This document shows, in pieces, positions 930-21,158 of a stretch of 43,206 nucleotides of DNA. The position numbers were made by a program, and so were the translations under genes. Origin of the DNA: an archaeon (GTDB taxonomy: Archaea; Asgardarchaeota; Thorarchaeia; Thorarchaeales; Thorarchaeaceae); contig JAJRWI010000026.1 in the NCBI GenBank assembly GCA_024276825.1, positions 1-43,206 on the forward strand. Reading direction: 5' to 3'. The notes under the pieces are model-generated. The model was not told the origin of the DNA and did no database searches. It saw only the letters and a program-made list of their open reading frames with translations. Each line of letters begins with the position of its first letter. Positions within the stretch are counted from its first letter, which is position 1.

Positions 930-3900
930 TTAGTCAATGTCAGCTTTAAGAATTATACTCAAGTCATAGAGATTCTCTTCGCCACAGTAGGGACAAATAA
1001 TTCCAACGAATTGAGAATCTATATTCTGGATATAGTGATTGGTCTCTGGAAAGTTAGAGGGATCTCTCTTTCTCTGCTGGAGATCTGACAATGTAATAGT
1101 TTCAAGTTTATAGTTATCAAATTCATAGTGTCTTAATGGAAAGTTGCACTCTAAGCAGTTTTCTATTGAAGGCTTAAGTAGATCATTAATTCGATATGAA
1201 AGTTCTGAAACAAGAATTCTTAGAACTTTCTCATCACTGGAATTCACCCATCCAGAAATTATTAGATTGCTGCTCATCGGTTCAAGTTTGCATTGAATCT
1301 CAATTATCCCGCGATTATTTGGATCCTCGGGATGAATCATAACTTTGTAATCAAAGAATGAGTTGATAGTTTCATATTTGAGAGTAACAGGCTCTCCAAA
1401 TAGTGAGTAGATTCTATACTTTGCATCAAGATAGATTCTAAGTAGCATTTCTGATGTAATCTTGGCACCTTTAGTATGAGTTCCTGGCTTGTCTAATGAA
1501 TATCTTCTTGGAGGCGAAGATTCAATCATTTGTGCTATAGTTCTAGCATCTACTGGAGTCATCCTACTAGTATCATCAGGAACAAACTTTATGACATTCT
1601 CAGTATGTGTAATTACCTTCTCTTTTTGTTCTTTGTCACCTGACATTCTATATTCGACATGCACACGAACTCTAATAGTGCCTTGATTCAGAATTTGAAG
1701 TTGAATAGGCACTGATTTAATGTTGATGTTCGTATCAGATTTGGAAATGCCAGGAATATCTCCCACGATTATCTCCTTTTGGGTTCGTATTTCATACGTA
1801 TCAAAACTTGCAATTGGCTGAGATTTTGTATCACCTTCAATGGATATGTTCAATTTTGTGTCGAGAATTGGTCGTTTTGACCTGTTTTGAATTTCTATAT
1901 CGAGATTATGTCTGTCGTATTTATCAGCGATAATTTTGAAATTAAACAAAAGTGGAAAGCTGGTCTTGATTTTGTAGACAGTAGATATAACCATGACAGT
2001 GATAAAGAATGAAAATATGGGAATTAGACTTTGGATGGTAGCAATTAGTGCATCACTTGGATCCAAGGGGTTGAATCCGCGTTCAACCTCCCAAAGGTCT
2101 GAATGACCATCATTATCGGAGTCTGACGATAGAGGGTTTGTACCAATAATGTATTCCTCTAAATTTGTAAGTCCATCATCATCAGAGTCATTTGAGGAGT
2201 CATCAACCAATGGGTCAAATCCATATTTAATTTCCCATCCATCATCTAAGCCATCATTATCAGTATCAGGGTTAATTGGATTTGTGCCAAGGTAGTATTC
2301 CTGCAGATTAGAAATTGTGTCATTGTCTGGATCTTGATTGCTATCATCAACTAATGGGTTTAATGAATAATAAACCTCCCAAGTATCATTCATCAAGTCA
2401 GAATCAGTATCTATAGAAAGGGGATTCGTGAAATAAATGAAAATTTCATCATAGTCGTTGAGAGTGTCATTGTCAGAATCAGGATTCAGCGGATCAGTGC
2501 TGTAAATAGTGATTTCCAGACCATCAATAATATTATCACCATCACTATCGTTCAATAGCGGATTGGTCGAATATTGGAATAGTTCCAAATAGTCATTTAC
2601 GTAGTCATAATCAGTATCATTATTGGTTGCATTGGTATGATAGTAGAACACTTCTAACCCATCAATCAGCAGATCAGAGTCTGTGTCGTTGTCGAGCGGA
2701 TTTGTCAAGTATGTGAGAGTTTCATTGCCATCTAGCAATAGGTCATTGTCAGTGTCGTTATCGAGTGGATTAGTTCCAATATCGAAAACCTCTGCTCTAT
2801 CAGAGAGAAAGTCATTGTCAGTATCATAAAGAATTGGACTTGTGCCATAGATAAAAACTTCCAGACCGTCAAGCAATAGATCATCATCAGTATCATTGTC
2901 TAGAGGTAGAGTATTGTATTGCATGACTTCAGCACCATCAGTGATAAGATCATTATCTGTGTCATTATTCAGAGCAGAAGTATGGTGAATAAAAATCTCA
3001 TCATAATCATTTAAATCATCAAAGTCAGTGTCATTGTTCAACGGATCAGTTCCATATCTTATGTATTCATAGTCGATAATCAAATCATCATCACTATCCG
3101 AGTCATTTGGGTTAGTTCCGAGAAAGCTTTCAGAATAAGATGAAATGAGATCAGCATCTGGATCTTGGACCAATAGGCAACTTGTTCTTGTATATCTTAG
3201 GTCTCCGCTAAGACCATTCCAATAGAGAAAACTGCTAGACTCGTTTAATGTAAGAGCATAAACATTGGTGTCATACGAACCAAACACGATATCCAACTGG
3301 TTATCATTATTGATATCACCGCAAGCGGGTGACGAAACAAGCCAATCCCCAGCTGTAAAATTCCACAATGAAGTACCATTGCGTCCACAGACTATGTAGA
3401 CTCTATTGTTTAGTATTCCTCCACCAACTACAACATCCAGAAGATAGTCTGAATTAACATCCACCAGAGTTGGAGAGGATGATATCCAGTAATCTGTCAG
3501 AAAAGACCAGATCAAATCGCCACTTTTTGCATCAAGAGCATAGAGCTTTGAGTCATAAGAGCCAAAGACAACATCAATGTCCATATCCCCATCAACATCA
3601 CCTAATGCAGGAGATGATGTGATATCTCCGCCAGTATTATATGACCAAATCAAAGATCCATCTGTACCATTTAATGAGTAAAAATTATCATTGCTTGACC
3701 CAACAAAAACCTCAAGAATTGTGTCATTATTGACATCAGCCAAAGCAGGTGATCCCTCAAATCCGTTTGATCCCGTTGAATAATTCCAAAGCATCATACC
3801 AGTAGAAGCTTGCAAGGCAAAAAGATACGAGTTAATGGTCCCAATTACAATTTCTTCAAATTCATCACCATTAATGTTCCCAATAGCCGCTGACCCCATA

Positions 3901-20600: not shown

Positions 20601-21158
20601 ATCACAATGTTGAATTCCATCATGAACATGAGTGGTGATTTCATCCAAGATTATTTGCTCGTTATCTGTGTTAGTTATTTCTACAAATAAAAGAAAATAA
20701 GAGGCACCATTTGGAAGAATAACTGTAGTATTCCATCTTGCAGAATATTGTGATGTAGTTCTGTCCTGAATAATTTGATACCCCTGGGCATTCTGATAAT
20801 AAACATAGTCAAAATATATTACATTTGACACTACATAGCTTTCAGTTCGATCTTGTGAACCCGTATATGAACTGGATTCAGTGCTGTCATAATTCTTACA
20901 GAGTTCAACATTGTAATCATAAGATGTTAAATAAGTGAAGAACCAAGGGTAGCTCTTGTAGTTTTGATCAAAGACTATTCTTAGGTGTCCATTATCAAGA
21001 ACAAGATCTTCATCACTTATCCCACTCTGTTGACTAGCATTTTGGGTAAGAAGTGGCTTTTGGGAATGTGTGATCACGGGCGTTTGACCAATATTTACAC
21101 TAAGCAGTATTAGCAATATACAAAAAGAAAAAACCTTTTCTAAAGATTTACTCGTCAT
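14625..21158 (-). CDS. Giant surface glycoprotein/adhesin, paralog of 6630-12275: signal peptide, unique N-terminal beta-rich domain, propeller, Ig-like repeat, propeller, 10 Ig-like repeats, TM and short tail
   Basis: 2177-aa ORF with the same repeat motifs. The C-terminal ~1000 aa is colinear with the paralog (e.g. YTWTFWI.NN.TIL.KIV..ET.GK and AVDI.GNENRTEM). Confidence 0.92.
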   Translation of the reverse strand: MTSKSLEKVFSFCILLILLSVNIGQTPVITHSQKPLLTQNASQQSGISDEDLVLDNGHLRIVFDQNYKSYPWFFTYLTSYDYNVELCKNYDSTESSSYTGSQDRTESYVVSNVIYFDYVYYQNAQGYQIIQDRTTSQYSARWNTTVILPNGASYFLLFVEITNTDNEQIILDEITTHVHDGIQHCDNIKYKLGQGVYPSETCANDIMYVYGTGNIDMTGSTGWRNYALDSQYPYTRVYDPNTQEAVTIGMVYGTTGPNQVVIYYGGDSSVPPDYDYMVNEAFPNPGETVTHHSFIAIHDYLQEDSTNIYDNIKSNYTSSIGNKETFNLREVSFYNCTIQFGTGRYAFNYDLLGGTEIIVNEIVPKYNDNNSVFILSYDYINNIWKPQDTLNLNINTTLRYPITYDLDNDGQLEYIIKYNTGTGSNYNLGIFHKQGSMLYLVSNSIQFSDGIYDMDFFDVDDDGIMEIGLVTGYYDSSAYVYKWVDNQLVLNWTKYYGSCFLGSCKFIDINNDSQVEFVVSNALSQLEFYEWTGSTFSLMGSFAQDAARNMVCIDYDFDGVDELVACGWSEHNERNIYVYNWDGTSISQSIGAVMSNDVKNIERYFNTITKKWDLFTITTNGAYLMESNGSNFQTYESLAMTYINAPCITVSDIDNDARDEIIISDQDNINNPAEWMIITVLEYSSRTPLTDNTPPTIDIGHFHEHISEYDNATIWASIQDQSSLHEVILSYSLDGSLWTNCSMYMDESYWVQTIPPQSLGTTVYYKVYAIDVAGNQGVSQVNNFTIDSNPSWIDSTTAYELNGFKKYFFFDFDGTPGDELILSSPEENNGTFCIYKYNRYNHSWTILTTLTFEQVGQNFYIIPKDLDNDNRIEYITIYSELSASTTYLLICHRVGNLLVPISNRLTFSDHIYDVDFFDFDGDGILEIVIATAYFDSGVYVYSFDGSVLSSIWNVNFGSSFVASVRVGEIDGDSFPELICSHSAAGIDVYDWTGSTFTYKASISRTPTSSLLFIVDIDNDTQNEIVSTERGGDIIFIDEWTGTEFNSWSSSSGPTIYSFNVFYNQFSQEYELILCRSDGIFITHWNGSGFSVLSAVELQLNVSSVYGANSIGDIDYDNCYEVVFKLRNSLNSSLFDYLVVQINWRLHAIDIVGPHIATSHRPAVPKDIDDVQVSAEITDPSGVSSAILSYSLDGGTSWTNITMTFSIGNYTATIPQQSAGTIVMYKVYSNDTNGNWGVSSITQYTVDNSQGPSINTSHSPSNPTLNDTVTVSAEISDPDDVSQAILSYSTDGGSSWTNVSMTHNTNWTADIPAQPIGTTVHYKVYAEDGIGNWAVSSITNYTVNDTTSPNIITSRNPINPTSADSVIVYADVNDTSSISQVILSYSVDGGSSWTNLSMSYSGNWTATIPSQSSGTVVQYKVYAEDVAGNWGTSETEQYAVDDTQPPTINVMREQSEPTNLDTVRIVANITDNSGIDTAVLSYSTDGGTTWINITMIHIENDNYEEYIPQQGIDTLVFYRVYSNDTYGNWNVSVTFNYTVRDGEGPTLTIIHTPINPDDTMSVVVNVSATDPSGVNQVILSYSLDGGVSWTNVSMTLNVNWTAEISPNSAGTNVTYKIYAEDNEGNWAVSSLYYYLIVDNTPPTIENIAYEPVVPNDHEPVTILVNATDTSGISQAILSYSIDGGASWANITMILNASWTADIPTQSAGVQVLFKIYMEDNIGLWSISAIYNYTVTFVDATPPTINIRIDPDSPTSDDLVLVQANVFDAEGINSVILSYSVDGGATWTNVSMTDLGNGTYTGLLPMQADGTTVYFRVYALDLNGNWAISETKSYIVDDTEPEIELIWTVAEYGDRGLVTVIVNITDDSEMSFVALFYTTNNWTSYQVINYTESRSSYTWTFWILNNQTILVKIVAKETTGKSKLLEDGPITYGDFETPLIEATFNEFIFIDEPYCVFLITDNTKVTNVTILYSFDSIHWNHASVLFNGTYYIAEIENGQVGVAVKILVTASDVYGNIKNFGPVEVVIGEHILPEIEYLFYIPEPVYANETIRPFIRAEDDSKLLEVYILYSVDLTQWTRIDLVYNGSLYTAEIPGQDAGTYVYFIGIAVDIYGNENRTEMITVYVQEGQPPGNIDLNGMTYNLLSIGITSVSLIIIIYFLRKILQARKATQWTSQVSNP
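14790..17715 (-). repeat. Ten tandem ~95-aa Ig/Fn3-like repeats (one more isolated copy at ~18800-19090)
   Basis: Units begin DIVGP, NSQGP, DTTSP, DTQPP, DGEGP, DNTPP, DATPP, DTEPE, DFETP and EHILP. Boundaries approximate. Confidence 0.88.

Follow-up and report, generated by a model that had tools for sequence, protein, structure and literature searches.

A low-GC island of a Thorarchaeote probably holds, among surface-receptor genes, a reduced version of a second and very divergent ESCRT-III/Vps4-like system

Introduction

This study concerns a stretch of 43,206 nucleotides from a Thorarchaeote (GenBank assembly GCA_024276825.1, contig JAJRWI010000026.1, positions 1 to 43,206; hereafter the window), in which three genes for large surface proteins are interleaved with five small open reading frames (ORFs). 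Two of the small ORFs, e192 and e193, encode helical-hairpin proteins that we assign to the superfamily of ESCRT-III (ESCRT, the endosomal sorting complexes that are required for transport), and one of the surface proteins, A1199, ends in a cytoplasmic tail whose homologs are encoded near relatives of e192 and e193 in other genomes. Discussions of how eukaryotic membrane trafficking arose take Asgard archaea as their point of reference and, to our knowledge, a single eukaryote-like ESCRT system is what the published surveys report for an Asgard genome. We show that five components of this locus recur together, in conserved order, in modules of other Thorarchaeota that also encode a Vps4-type ATPase, and we propose that the window probably carries a reduced derivative of this rare second Asgard ESCRT-III/Vps4-like system.

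Results and Discussion

The island and its genes

The window is the whole of contig C15 of the source genome (G000; 2.94 Mb, 98% complete). Among the relatives compared with it, G001 belongs to the same genus and is a single contig, and G017 and G063 represent two other genera of the same family. Nine genes lie within the island delimited in Table 1. All the named ones are on the minus strand except pci361; read along that strand they follow one another as C2177, s209, B1881, e192, e193, h164 and A1199, with pci361 placed between s209 and B1881. An earlier reading of the DNA letters and their ORFs, the original prediction, had described three large single-pass propeller proteins interleaved with five small ORFs, nearly all on one strand, and this layout was confirmed exactly. 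Its description of the large proteins was borne out by transmembrane (TM) and signal prediction and by matches to FG-GAP/PQQ beta-propellers, since A1199, B1881 and C2177 each combine a signal or anchor helix at the N-terminus with one TM helix in the C-terminal part, and carry immunoglobulin (Ig)-like, TSP3, CBM56 or Reelin-B-like repeats in addition to the propellers. The statement that no vps4/AAA ATPase, ubiquitin or transposase gene is present also held, as scans of positions 1-22 kb with family libraries found no member of these families. Moreover, the locus is separate from the core ESCRT cluster, as had been supposed: the canonical ESCRT genes of G000 (two Snf7 genes and a Vps4 gene) are on contigs C33 and C81, with Vps4 at 137670-138854 of C81, and the relatives have such genes likewise.

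Table 1. Positions of the island, its named genes and the A1199 tail domain in the window
Feature	Position	Strand	Description
Low-GC accessory island	720..22400	.	Approximate edges, bounded by the M23 peptidase gene and by the Hdr/Mvh cluster
A1199	930..4529	-	Type I surface receptor, 1199 aa; signal peptide, PQQ/FG-GAP propeller, TSP3 repeats, TM 826-854, 345-aa cytoplasmic tail
A1199 cytoplasmic tail domain	933..1967	-	Homologous to the C-terminus of 973-980 aa cytoplasmic proteins of G017/G063
h164 (P0001)	4749..5243	-	Helical partner, 164 aa; 25 nt after e193
e193 (P0002)	5269..5850	-	ESCRT-III-like hairpin, 'eB' position; keeps the C-terminal IPxExK+ motif
e192 (P0003)	5963..6541	-	ESCRT-III-like hairpin, 'eA' position (upstream of the ATPase in related modules)
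B1881	6630..12275	-	Giant type I surface protein, 1881 aa; FG-GAP, Reelin-B/BNR-like, Ig-like repeats; short tail ending WxSxxSNP
pci361 (P0004)	12677..13762	+	361 aa; N-terminal TM anchor (helix 31-56), winged-helix-like C-terminal region
s209 (P0005)	13910..14539	-	Orphan ORF, possibly SPFH-like by ESM-feature neighbours
C2177	14625..21158	-	2177 aa; paralog of B1881, same tail motif

The first 20 kb of the window are the lowest-GC 20-kb stretch of the genome (37.7% versus a mean of 43.8%, standard deviation 1.7), and every island gene, large or small, has a GC content of 33-40% (genome, 43.6%). The idea that low GC is a common trait of giant surface-protein genes was rejected on the basis of the 21 other G000 proteins of at least 1500 aa, whose genes have a GC content of 39-50%, at least 41% in all but two and 41-46% in most. 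The M23 gene at the start of the contig has 42%. In G001, the region upstream of the Hdr/Mvh genes consists of orthologs of G000 contig C81 and some unique genes, and the island is not syntenic. Searches with e192 and e193 found no match in either of two genomes of the same genus, and the small ORFs have no paralog elsewhere in G000. The stretch from about 720 to 22400 is a low-GC accessory island specific to this Thorarchaeote strain. G000 has further 20-kb stretches of low GC (38-40%), on contigs C28 (15-45 kb), C31, C58 and C76, and giant surface-protein genes are also present on C58 and C76.

e192 and e193 are divergent ESCRT-III-like proteins

AlphaFold2 models of e192 and e193 were built from three-sequence alignments, and both show a long alpha1-alpha2 N-terminal hairpin followed by shorter helices. 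In e192 the hairpin spans residues 2-53 and 60-99, with a predicted local distance difference test (pLDDT) score of 74-85, and is followed by four short, poorly defined helices. The e193 model (pLDDT 78, predicted template-modelling score 0.70) has helices at 17-63, 70-105, 112-123 and 131-145, then a disordered linker and a helix at 176-185, a predicted fold of ESCRT-III topology. When e192 was searched with Foldseek, 12 of the 13 best matches were ESCRT-III superfamily structures, with Asgard ESCRT-IIIB, CHMP1B, Vipp1, CdvB and Snf7 at the top.

Iterated searches with jackhmmer from either e192 or e193 converge on one set of proteins of about 185-228 aa, in which the eA and eB types merge, and the resulting family has 19 members in 10 Asgard genomes (alignment A6). 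Compared by hhalign with 36 Asgard Snf7 proteins, A6 gave 85%, an E-value of 5.8e-6 and a score of 43.5, with the two families in register over alpha1, the turn with its nearly invariant Pro, and alpha2-alpha3. Control scores were 22 for reversed profiles and 30 for the best of 40 block shuffles that preserve heptads. An independent hmmsearch of the PDB with A6 matched the yeast Snf7 core, again in register (E 0.027). Three-sequence profiles matched Snf7 weakly (E 6e-4 to 3e-3), in register for e193. The family shares a C-terminal motif, D-P-E-[FL]...[LI]-P-x-E-x-K-[RK]-K, that resembles MIM1 or MIM2 and is equal to neither; it is kept in e193.

Single-sequence and library searches returned little. 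Among 1.84e9 representatives, phmmer with e192 found itself only; a word-indexed search with the e193 (eB) alignment returned just the three known members; and an eB-profile match in genome G166 was marginal (E 3e-4). None of the five small ORFs gave anything above threshold in Pfam, NCBIfam or PHROGs, and PDB sequence searches of e192, e193, pci361 and s209 returned no informative match. A PDB match of e193 to 3-dehydroquinate dehydratase (E 5.6e-5) was judged to be a compositional coiled-coil match and was set aside. Taken together, we accept e192 and e193, on the strength of remote sequence similarity, as very divergent members of the ESCRT-III superfamily, and the ESCRT-III-like label that the original prediction had given them holds at the level of profile, fold and genomic context, though not by Pfam.

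Related modules in other Asgard genomes

Whole-genome searches of the relatives found weak matches to e192 and e193 in G017 and G063, which represent two further genera, and in both cases the matches fall within a larger gene module. In G063 the order is: three DO-GTPases, a 1491-aa protein in the position of GAP1, a 973-aa cytoplasmic FG-GAP-like protein, a divergent 337-aa TM protein, a 215-aa eA, an AAA ATPase with a Vps4_C domain, a 219-aa eB, a 280-aa helical protein, a 110-aa protein and a cytoplasmic subtilase. The 1491-aa protein has no Pfam GAP1 match of its own; it is the counterpart of the GAP1-N2/GAP1-M protein of G017, and BLAST aligns it with the proteins at the GAP1 position in three other lineages. 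The same gene set is present in G017 over two short contigs, which probably abut and would then give the G063 gene order. One of the two (G017:C15, locus L007) ends within the module ATPase and the other (G017:C118, locus L008) begins with eB.

By pairwise BLAST, e192 matches eA of G017/G063 (E 5e-7 and 2e-4), e193 matches eB (E 1e-6 and 1.4e-8 (G063)), h164 matches the helical protein (E 2e-5) and pci361 matches the 337-aa TM protein (E 8e-9), and the small proteins of the window are 20-29% identical to their nearest relatives. The gene for the pci361 homolog of G063 has the same divergent placement adjoining eA, and G204 has a further homolog. As for h164, it aligns to the first ~160 residues only of the 280- and 336-aa proteins that follow eB in G063 and G017. 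Comparison of gene neighbourhoods had been named in advance as a check, and homologs of e192, e193, h164, pci361 and the A1199 tail do co-occur in other Thorarchaeota. Since the five recur together in conserved order, chance does not explain their arrangement.

The full form of the module was found in seven genomes (G063, G017, G116, G177, G237, G029 and G204). It consists of two or three hairpin proteins of ~190-220 aa that flank an ATPase of MIT-AAA-Vps4_C architecture, together with one or two helical proteins. In G029, G204, G116, G177, G063 and G017 the module adjoins a gene for a cytoplasmic subtilase. A divergent pair of DO-GTPases and a GAP1-N2 protein are encoded beside it in G063, G017, G116, G177 and G237, a neighbourhood absent from the window and from G000. 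An operon form that lacks GAP1 occurs in two further families. In 9 of the 10 genomes with family members, representing seven families, these are encoded beside the MIT-AAA Vps4-like gene or at most two genes away; the exception to this adjacency is a second copy in G029, located after the subtilase. The system is rare: members of the eA/eB families turned up in 3 of the 86 genomes from the Thorarchaeal family, and an AAA ATPase closer to that of the module than to canonical Vps4 was found in about 16 of the 400 Asgard genomes searched, 15 of these being in the module clade.

The loci without GAP1 (L087, L088, L089, L091 and L094 in G384-G388, and L092 in G380) have an order of three ~190-215 aa hairpin proteins, a module-type MIT-AAA and conserved genes of 380, 220, 560, 200 and 445 aa. 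At an E-value cut-off of 1e-40, searches of G388 and G386 revealed no canonical Vps4 in addition to it, and the form without GAP1 may therefore serve that lineage as its principal ESCRT system.

These data bear on an alternative, namely that the small ORFs are lineage-specific coiled-coil ORFans with a chance resemblance to ESCRT-III and that the island is a mere cluster of surface genes. However, the hhalign score is well above those of the reversed and block-shuffled controls, the PDB profile search gave its in-register Snf7 match independently, and the family members flank a MIT-AAA Vps4-like gene in nine of ten genomes from seven families. We consider a chance resemblance very improbable.

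The module ATPase

The ATPase of the module has AAA and Vps4_C domains by Pfam. Its N-terminal regions (alignment A8) match the MIT domains of CdvC/Vps4 from Sulfolobus (8.6e-9 and 1.5e-8) and human VPS4B (1e-6), and also those of calpain-7 and katanin, and the matches cover the whole three-helix MIT domain. In a maximum-likelihood tree the 15 module ATPases form a clade (support 100/100) apart from that of the canonical Asgard Vps4 proteins (100/99), the latter being placed with the Cdc48-D2/PAN outgroup side. An AAA protein of locus L097 (G383:C1, 9480-10634) that had been a candidate module ATPase was rejected, as the tree places it among the canonical Asgard Vps4 proteins. Judged by domains and phylogeny, the module ATPase is predicted to be a true Vps4-type enzyme with a clade of its own. 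A canonical Vps4 is additionally present in G063, G116 and G177. Partnership with a MIT-domain Vps4-type AAA is thus a feature of the modules of nine other genomes and is absent from the window.

The A1199 tail and the link to surface receptors

The tail of A1199 has a predicted beta-rich part (a judgement made by eye on the alignment), continues with a predicted alpha/beta part and ends in a four-Cys zinc (Zn) ribbon (C..C ... CPxCG), of which the four Cys are invariant across the alignment with the homologs of G017 and G063. Residues 875-1196 of A1199 match the C-terminus of a 980-aa and a 973-aa cytoplasmic protein (E 2e-18, G017, and 5e-5), which have neither a TM helix nor a signal peptide and are encoded beside GAP1. 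Against the PDB and Pfam, the tail profile gave matches at the level of the Zn ribbon only, and a word-indexed search with the tail returned nothing. By these alignments the tail is a system-specific Zn-ribbon domain fused behind a TM helix, and this gene fusion constitutes a physical link between receptor and module.

Co-occurrence of the small-ORF homologs with surface proteins in other genomes had been set beforehand as a test of the original prediction. It was seen in G017, G237 and G177, and in part in G116. In G017 a 667-aa protein with a signal peptide, Ig domain and TM helix is encoded directly upstream of eA. Proteins of 700-1300 aa flank the module in G237 and G177, and they carry a signal peptide, a TM helix and cytoplasmic tails of 140-270 aa; the neighbour in G116 has its N-terminus cut in the region, and a TM helix and a 142-aa tail are seen. 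The flanking receptor genes are at 11627-19483 of L093 (G237), 16209-20000 of L095 (G116) and 14297-19494 of L098 (G177). The receptor tails of these three genomes have similar helical C-terminal ends; those encoded at one locus, in G237 and in G177, are homologous to each other (E 8e-8 and 3e-36), and BLAST found no similarity between lineages or to the A1199 tail. The idea of a receptor-coupled membrane-remodelling module therefore stands in part: receptors do adjoin the modules and the tail fusion ties one of them to the system, whereas the window is not self-sufficient and its role in budding or uptake is pure inference. Indeed, the full system elsewhere has a Vps4-like ATPase, a subtilase and a switch, which makes the window a stripped-down derivative rather than a self-sufficient machine.

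A probable reduced derivative of a second ESCRT-III/Vps4-like system

The reading that we prefer, and regard as probable when taken whole with its mechanism, is that the island carries a reduced derivative of the rare second Asgard ESCRT-III/Vps4-like system. Its two parts differ in firmness, and we hold the identity of the components with high confidence and the mechanism with low confidence. With the enzymes absent and h164 halved, the window is a reduced form of the system that is complete elsewhere. As to mechanism, the A1199 tail and the membrane-anchored, winged-helix-like pci361 may define the spot on the membrane's inner face where e192 and e193 would copolymerise into an ESCRT-III-type filament that could bend, seal or shed the membrane around an engaged receptor. 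Turnover, if any, might be provided by the canonical Vps4 (C81) through the C-terminal motif of e193. What the data show is the homology and synteny of five components, the hairpin class of e192 and e193, the tail fusion, the absence of the enzymes and the status of the island; polymerisation, recruitment and trigger are what we infer, as is the purpose, which may be receptor-coupled remodelling or repair or else a conflict or abortive response.

It is also conceivable that the locus encodes an ATPase-independent, receptor-nucleated device, in which ligand binding by A1199 would seed an e192/e193 filament through its tail and pci361 for shedding, uptake or repair, and which would have arisen by fusion of adaptor and receptor after loss of the GTPase switch. 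The complex prediction of e192, e193 and h164 with the A1199 tail scored 0.00 and gives no verdict either way. We consider this device improbable. If true, ESCRT action coupled to cargo or to a receptor would have a precedent among prokaryotes.

A number of observations weigh against reading the island as a derivative of the second system. No remnants of the module AAA, subtilase, GAP1 or GTPases were found in positions 1-22 kb by tblastn with all module proteins, and, with ATPase, GTPases, GAP1 and protease missing, an active machine is not assured. Neither e192 nor e193 matches Pfam Snf7. The fold searches with e193, which has the better model, gave generic, non-specific helical hairpins (Foldseek, VIA-align), and the three-genome alignments are shallow. 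The C-terminal family motif is degenerate or lost in e192, and h164 corresponds to the N-terminal half of its homologs, the C-terminal half with a conserved I-P-P-E stretch being missing. Finally, the related modules contain no counterpart of B1881, C2177 or s209, whose membership therefore rests only on adjacency and shared low GC.

Just 112 nt separate e192 from e193, and the ATPase gene is therefore cleanly absent. Likewise, the 219-nt gap between h164 and A1199 holds no remnant of the missing half of h164. In G000 as a whole, neither the 1491-aa G063 protein as query nor Pfam GAP1-N2 found a GAP1, and DO-GTPase1 gave sub-threshold P-loop matches only. The AAA genes of Vps4 size in G000 are the canonical Vps4 and that of a 406-aa AAA ATPase on C28, which is probably a proteasome-activating nucleotidase.

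Such losses raise the question of whether the island is a decaying relic, in which the enzymes were deleted and the leftover small ORFs, now functionless, are drifting to pseudogenes among variable surface-protein genes. The loss of all enzymatic components, the reduction of h164 to its N-terminal half and the lack of the conserved C-terminal motif in e192 would all fit this explanation, as would the extreme divergence of the small proteins (the 20-29% identity noted above) and the failure to find the module in two genomes of the same genus. However, the five retained frames are intact over 164-361 codons in DNA of 33-38% GC, where stops are frequent. Moreover, e193 folds at the pLDDT given above and keeps its C-terminal motif, the tail keeps all four Zn-ligand Cys in frame behind the TM helix, and a canonical Vps4 is available in trans. 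In our judgement decay is unlikely to account for the locus, and we retain the reduced derivative as the better description.

A possible role in conflict

The company that the full modules keep could point to a different purpose. Bacterial GAP1-N2 DO-GTPase systems were defined by Kaur, Burroughs, Iyer, and Aravind (2020; PMC7159879), who proposed a role in biological conflict, and pairs of DO-GTPases, GAP1-N2 and a cytoplasmic subtilase, all present in full modules, are hallmarks of those systems. The island might accordingly serve against viruses, with the surface proteins and the tail sensing invaders and the polymer sealing, shedding or sacrificing membrane, and the window would then be a receptor-wired variant without the switch. 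The sporadic occurrence, in 3 of the 86 family genomes and about 16 of 400 across the phylum, and the location in a low-GC strain-specific island are in keeping with this possibility. On the other hand, the role of GAP1 systems in conflict is itself a prediction, G000 has neither GAP1 nor DO-GTPase, the small ORFs give no PHROG-type signal, and the island has no nuclease or toxin effector. We consider a conflict function somewhat unlikely.

pci361 and s209

The original prediction had labelled pci361 as a PCI/winged-helix protein and drawn an analogy with ESCRT-II. Both label and analogy are unproven: the Pfam PCI score of 18.9 bits is below the cut-off of 22 bits and comes from residues 263-300 of pci361, and its two homologs give no such match. 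A weak match to the Z-alpha winged helix (E ~1) falls on the same stretch, which shows a classic winged helix-turn-helix pattern. A search of the ESM atlas with pci361 gave no usable match.

For s209, which the original prediction had labelled SPFH-like, there was no match to Pfam or NCBIfam at E up to 1, nor to PHROG or to PDB sequences, and a word-indexed search (shared-word prefilter) of 5.8e9 cluster representatives found only s209 itself. Its nearest neighbours in ESM features are Band_7, Band_7_1 and MVP-shoulder clusters (0.85-0.91), and, on visual inspection, the pattern at its C-terminus is similar to that at the end of SPFH domains. We treat the assignment as a language-model lead only.

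Comparison with known systems

Like canonical ESCRT-III and Vps4 of Asgard archaea and eukaryotes, the proteins considered here are of ~190-220 aa with an N-terminal hairpin, flank an ATPase in the relatives and show in-register similarity to Snf7. They differ in that the window family goes undetected by Pfam Snf7 and its ATPase forms a separate clade, and in that the module is not linked to ESCRT-I/II or ubiquitin genes and is additional to the canonical pair. A survey of archaeal ESCRT systems reported monophyly of the Asgard Vps4 proteins, with the exception of three from Hodarchaea that are outliers and lack ESCRT neighbours (Makarova et al., 2024; PMC10936438).

With the GAP1-N2 systems the relatives' modules share paralogous DO-GTPases that adjoin GAP1-N2, together with TM components and a peptidase. 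In bacteria these systems are coupled to tubulin, HSP70 or kinase modules, tubulin and HSP70 being examples of polymer-forming or chaperone partners, which is a further likeness, and show membrane proximity (PMC7159879), and that paper mentions neither ESCRT, Snf7, Vps4 nor Asgard. In contrast to them, no component with FNIII repeats was seen here, and G000 lacks GAP1 and DO-GTPases. A full-text literature search found no description of ESCRT-III combined with DO-GTPase or GAP1-N2.

A striking architectural parallel is found in the euryarchaeal Meth_adaptin/Halo_adaptin loci, which encode Vps4, a very divergent ESCRT-III upstream of it, a winged-helix protein upstream of that, and an SPFH protein (Makarova et al., 2024). 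They also encode proteins that have either a PQQ/WD40 propeller or an appendage region, made up of a beta-sandwich and an alpha/beta part, with a Zn ribbon, and one of these is connected to another domain by a TM linker (PMC10936438). The window has a candidate analogue of each non-ATPase part, and the likeness is one of architecture only. The adaptin appendage is described as IG and TBP domains, one of them with a Zn ribbon, and the A1199 tail shows a four-Cys Zn ribbon; the Vps4 is absent in the window. The original prediction had pointed to the pspA-ydjGHI operon of Bacillus subtilis (in which YdjI is the SPFH protein), and the window resembles it in having an ESCRT-III superfamily protein near a possible SPFH protein and membrane proteins with no dedicated ATPase. 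However, s209 is 7 kb from e192/e193 behind a giant gene, and there are no PspA-clade features. The present locus is a Thorarchaeal variant of the full system that lacks ATPase, GTPase and protease and has an adaptor domain fused to a receptor.

We conclude that the locus forms part of a second and very divergent ESCRT-III/Vps4-like system, one that the standard family models have overlooked. Carried on accessory islands, this system is connected with surface receptors, a protease and a GTPase switch. The window would be a natural 'minimal' variant of it, in which the hairpin proteins persist without the ATPase and the receptor tail offers a concrete, testable link to ESCRT-III. At 192 and 193 aa, the two hairpin proteins are small enough for in vitro polymerisation and membrane assays.

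Other features of the window

B1881 and C2177 are 48% identical over ~1400 aa. Their C-termini (window 6630-6680 and 14625-14675) carry the sequence W-x-S-x-x-S-N-P, 13 residues past the TM helix, which ends no other ORF of G000. Because both proteins are paralogs, common ancestry may suffice to explain the shared motif.

Outside the island, the contig starts with a membrane-anchored M23 peptidase gene, and its remainder (22.5-43 kb) holds two Hdr/Mvh-type clusters and genes for phosphoenolpyruvate carboxykinase and aldehyde:ferredoxin oxidoreductase. The clusters, in window 22489-39602, are of normal GC; the first has the order hdrC-hdrC-hdrB-hdrL-like-mvhD-hdrA and the second hdrC-hdrB-hdrL-like-hdrA-mvhD-mvhG-mvhA. 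The counterparts of these Hdr-type genes in G001 are differently arranged.

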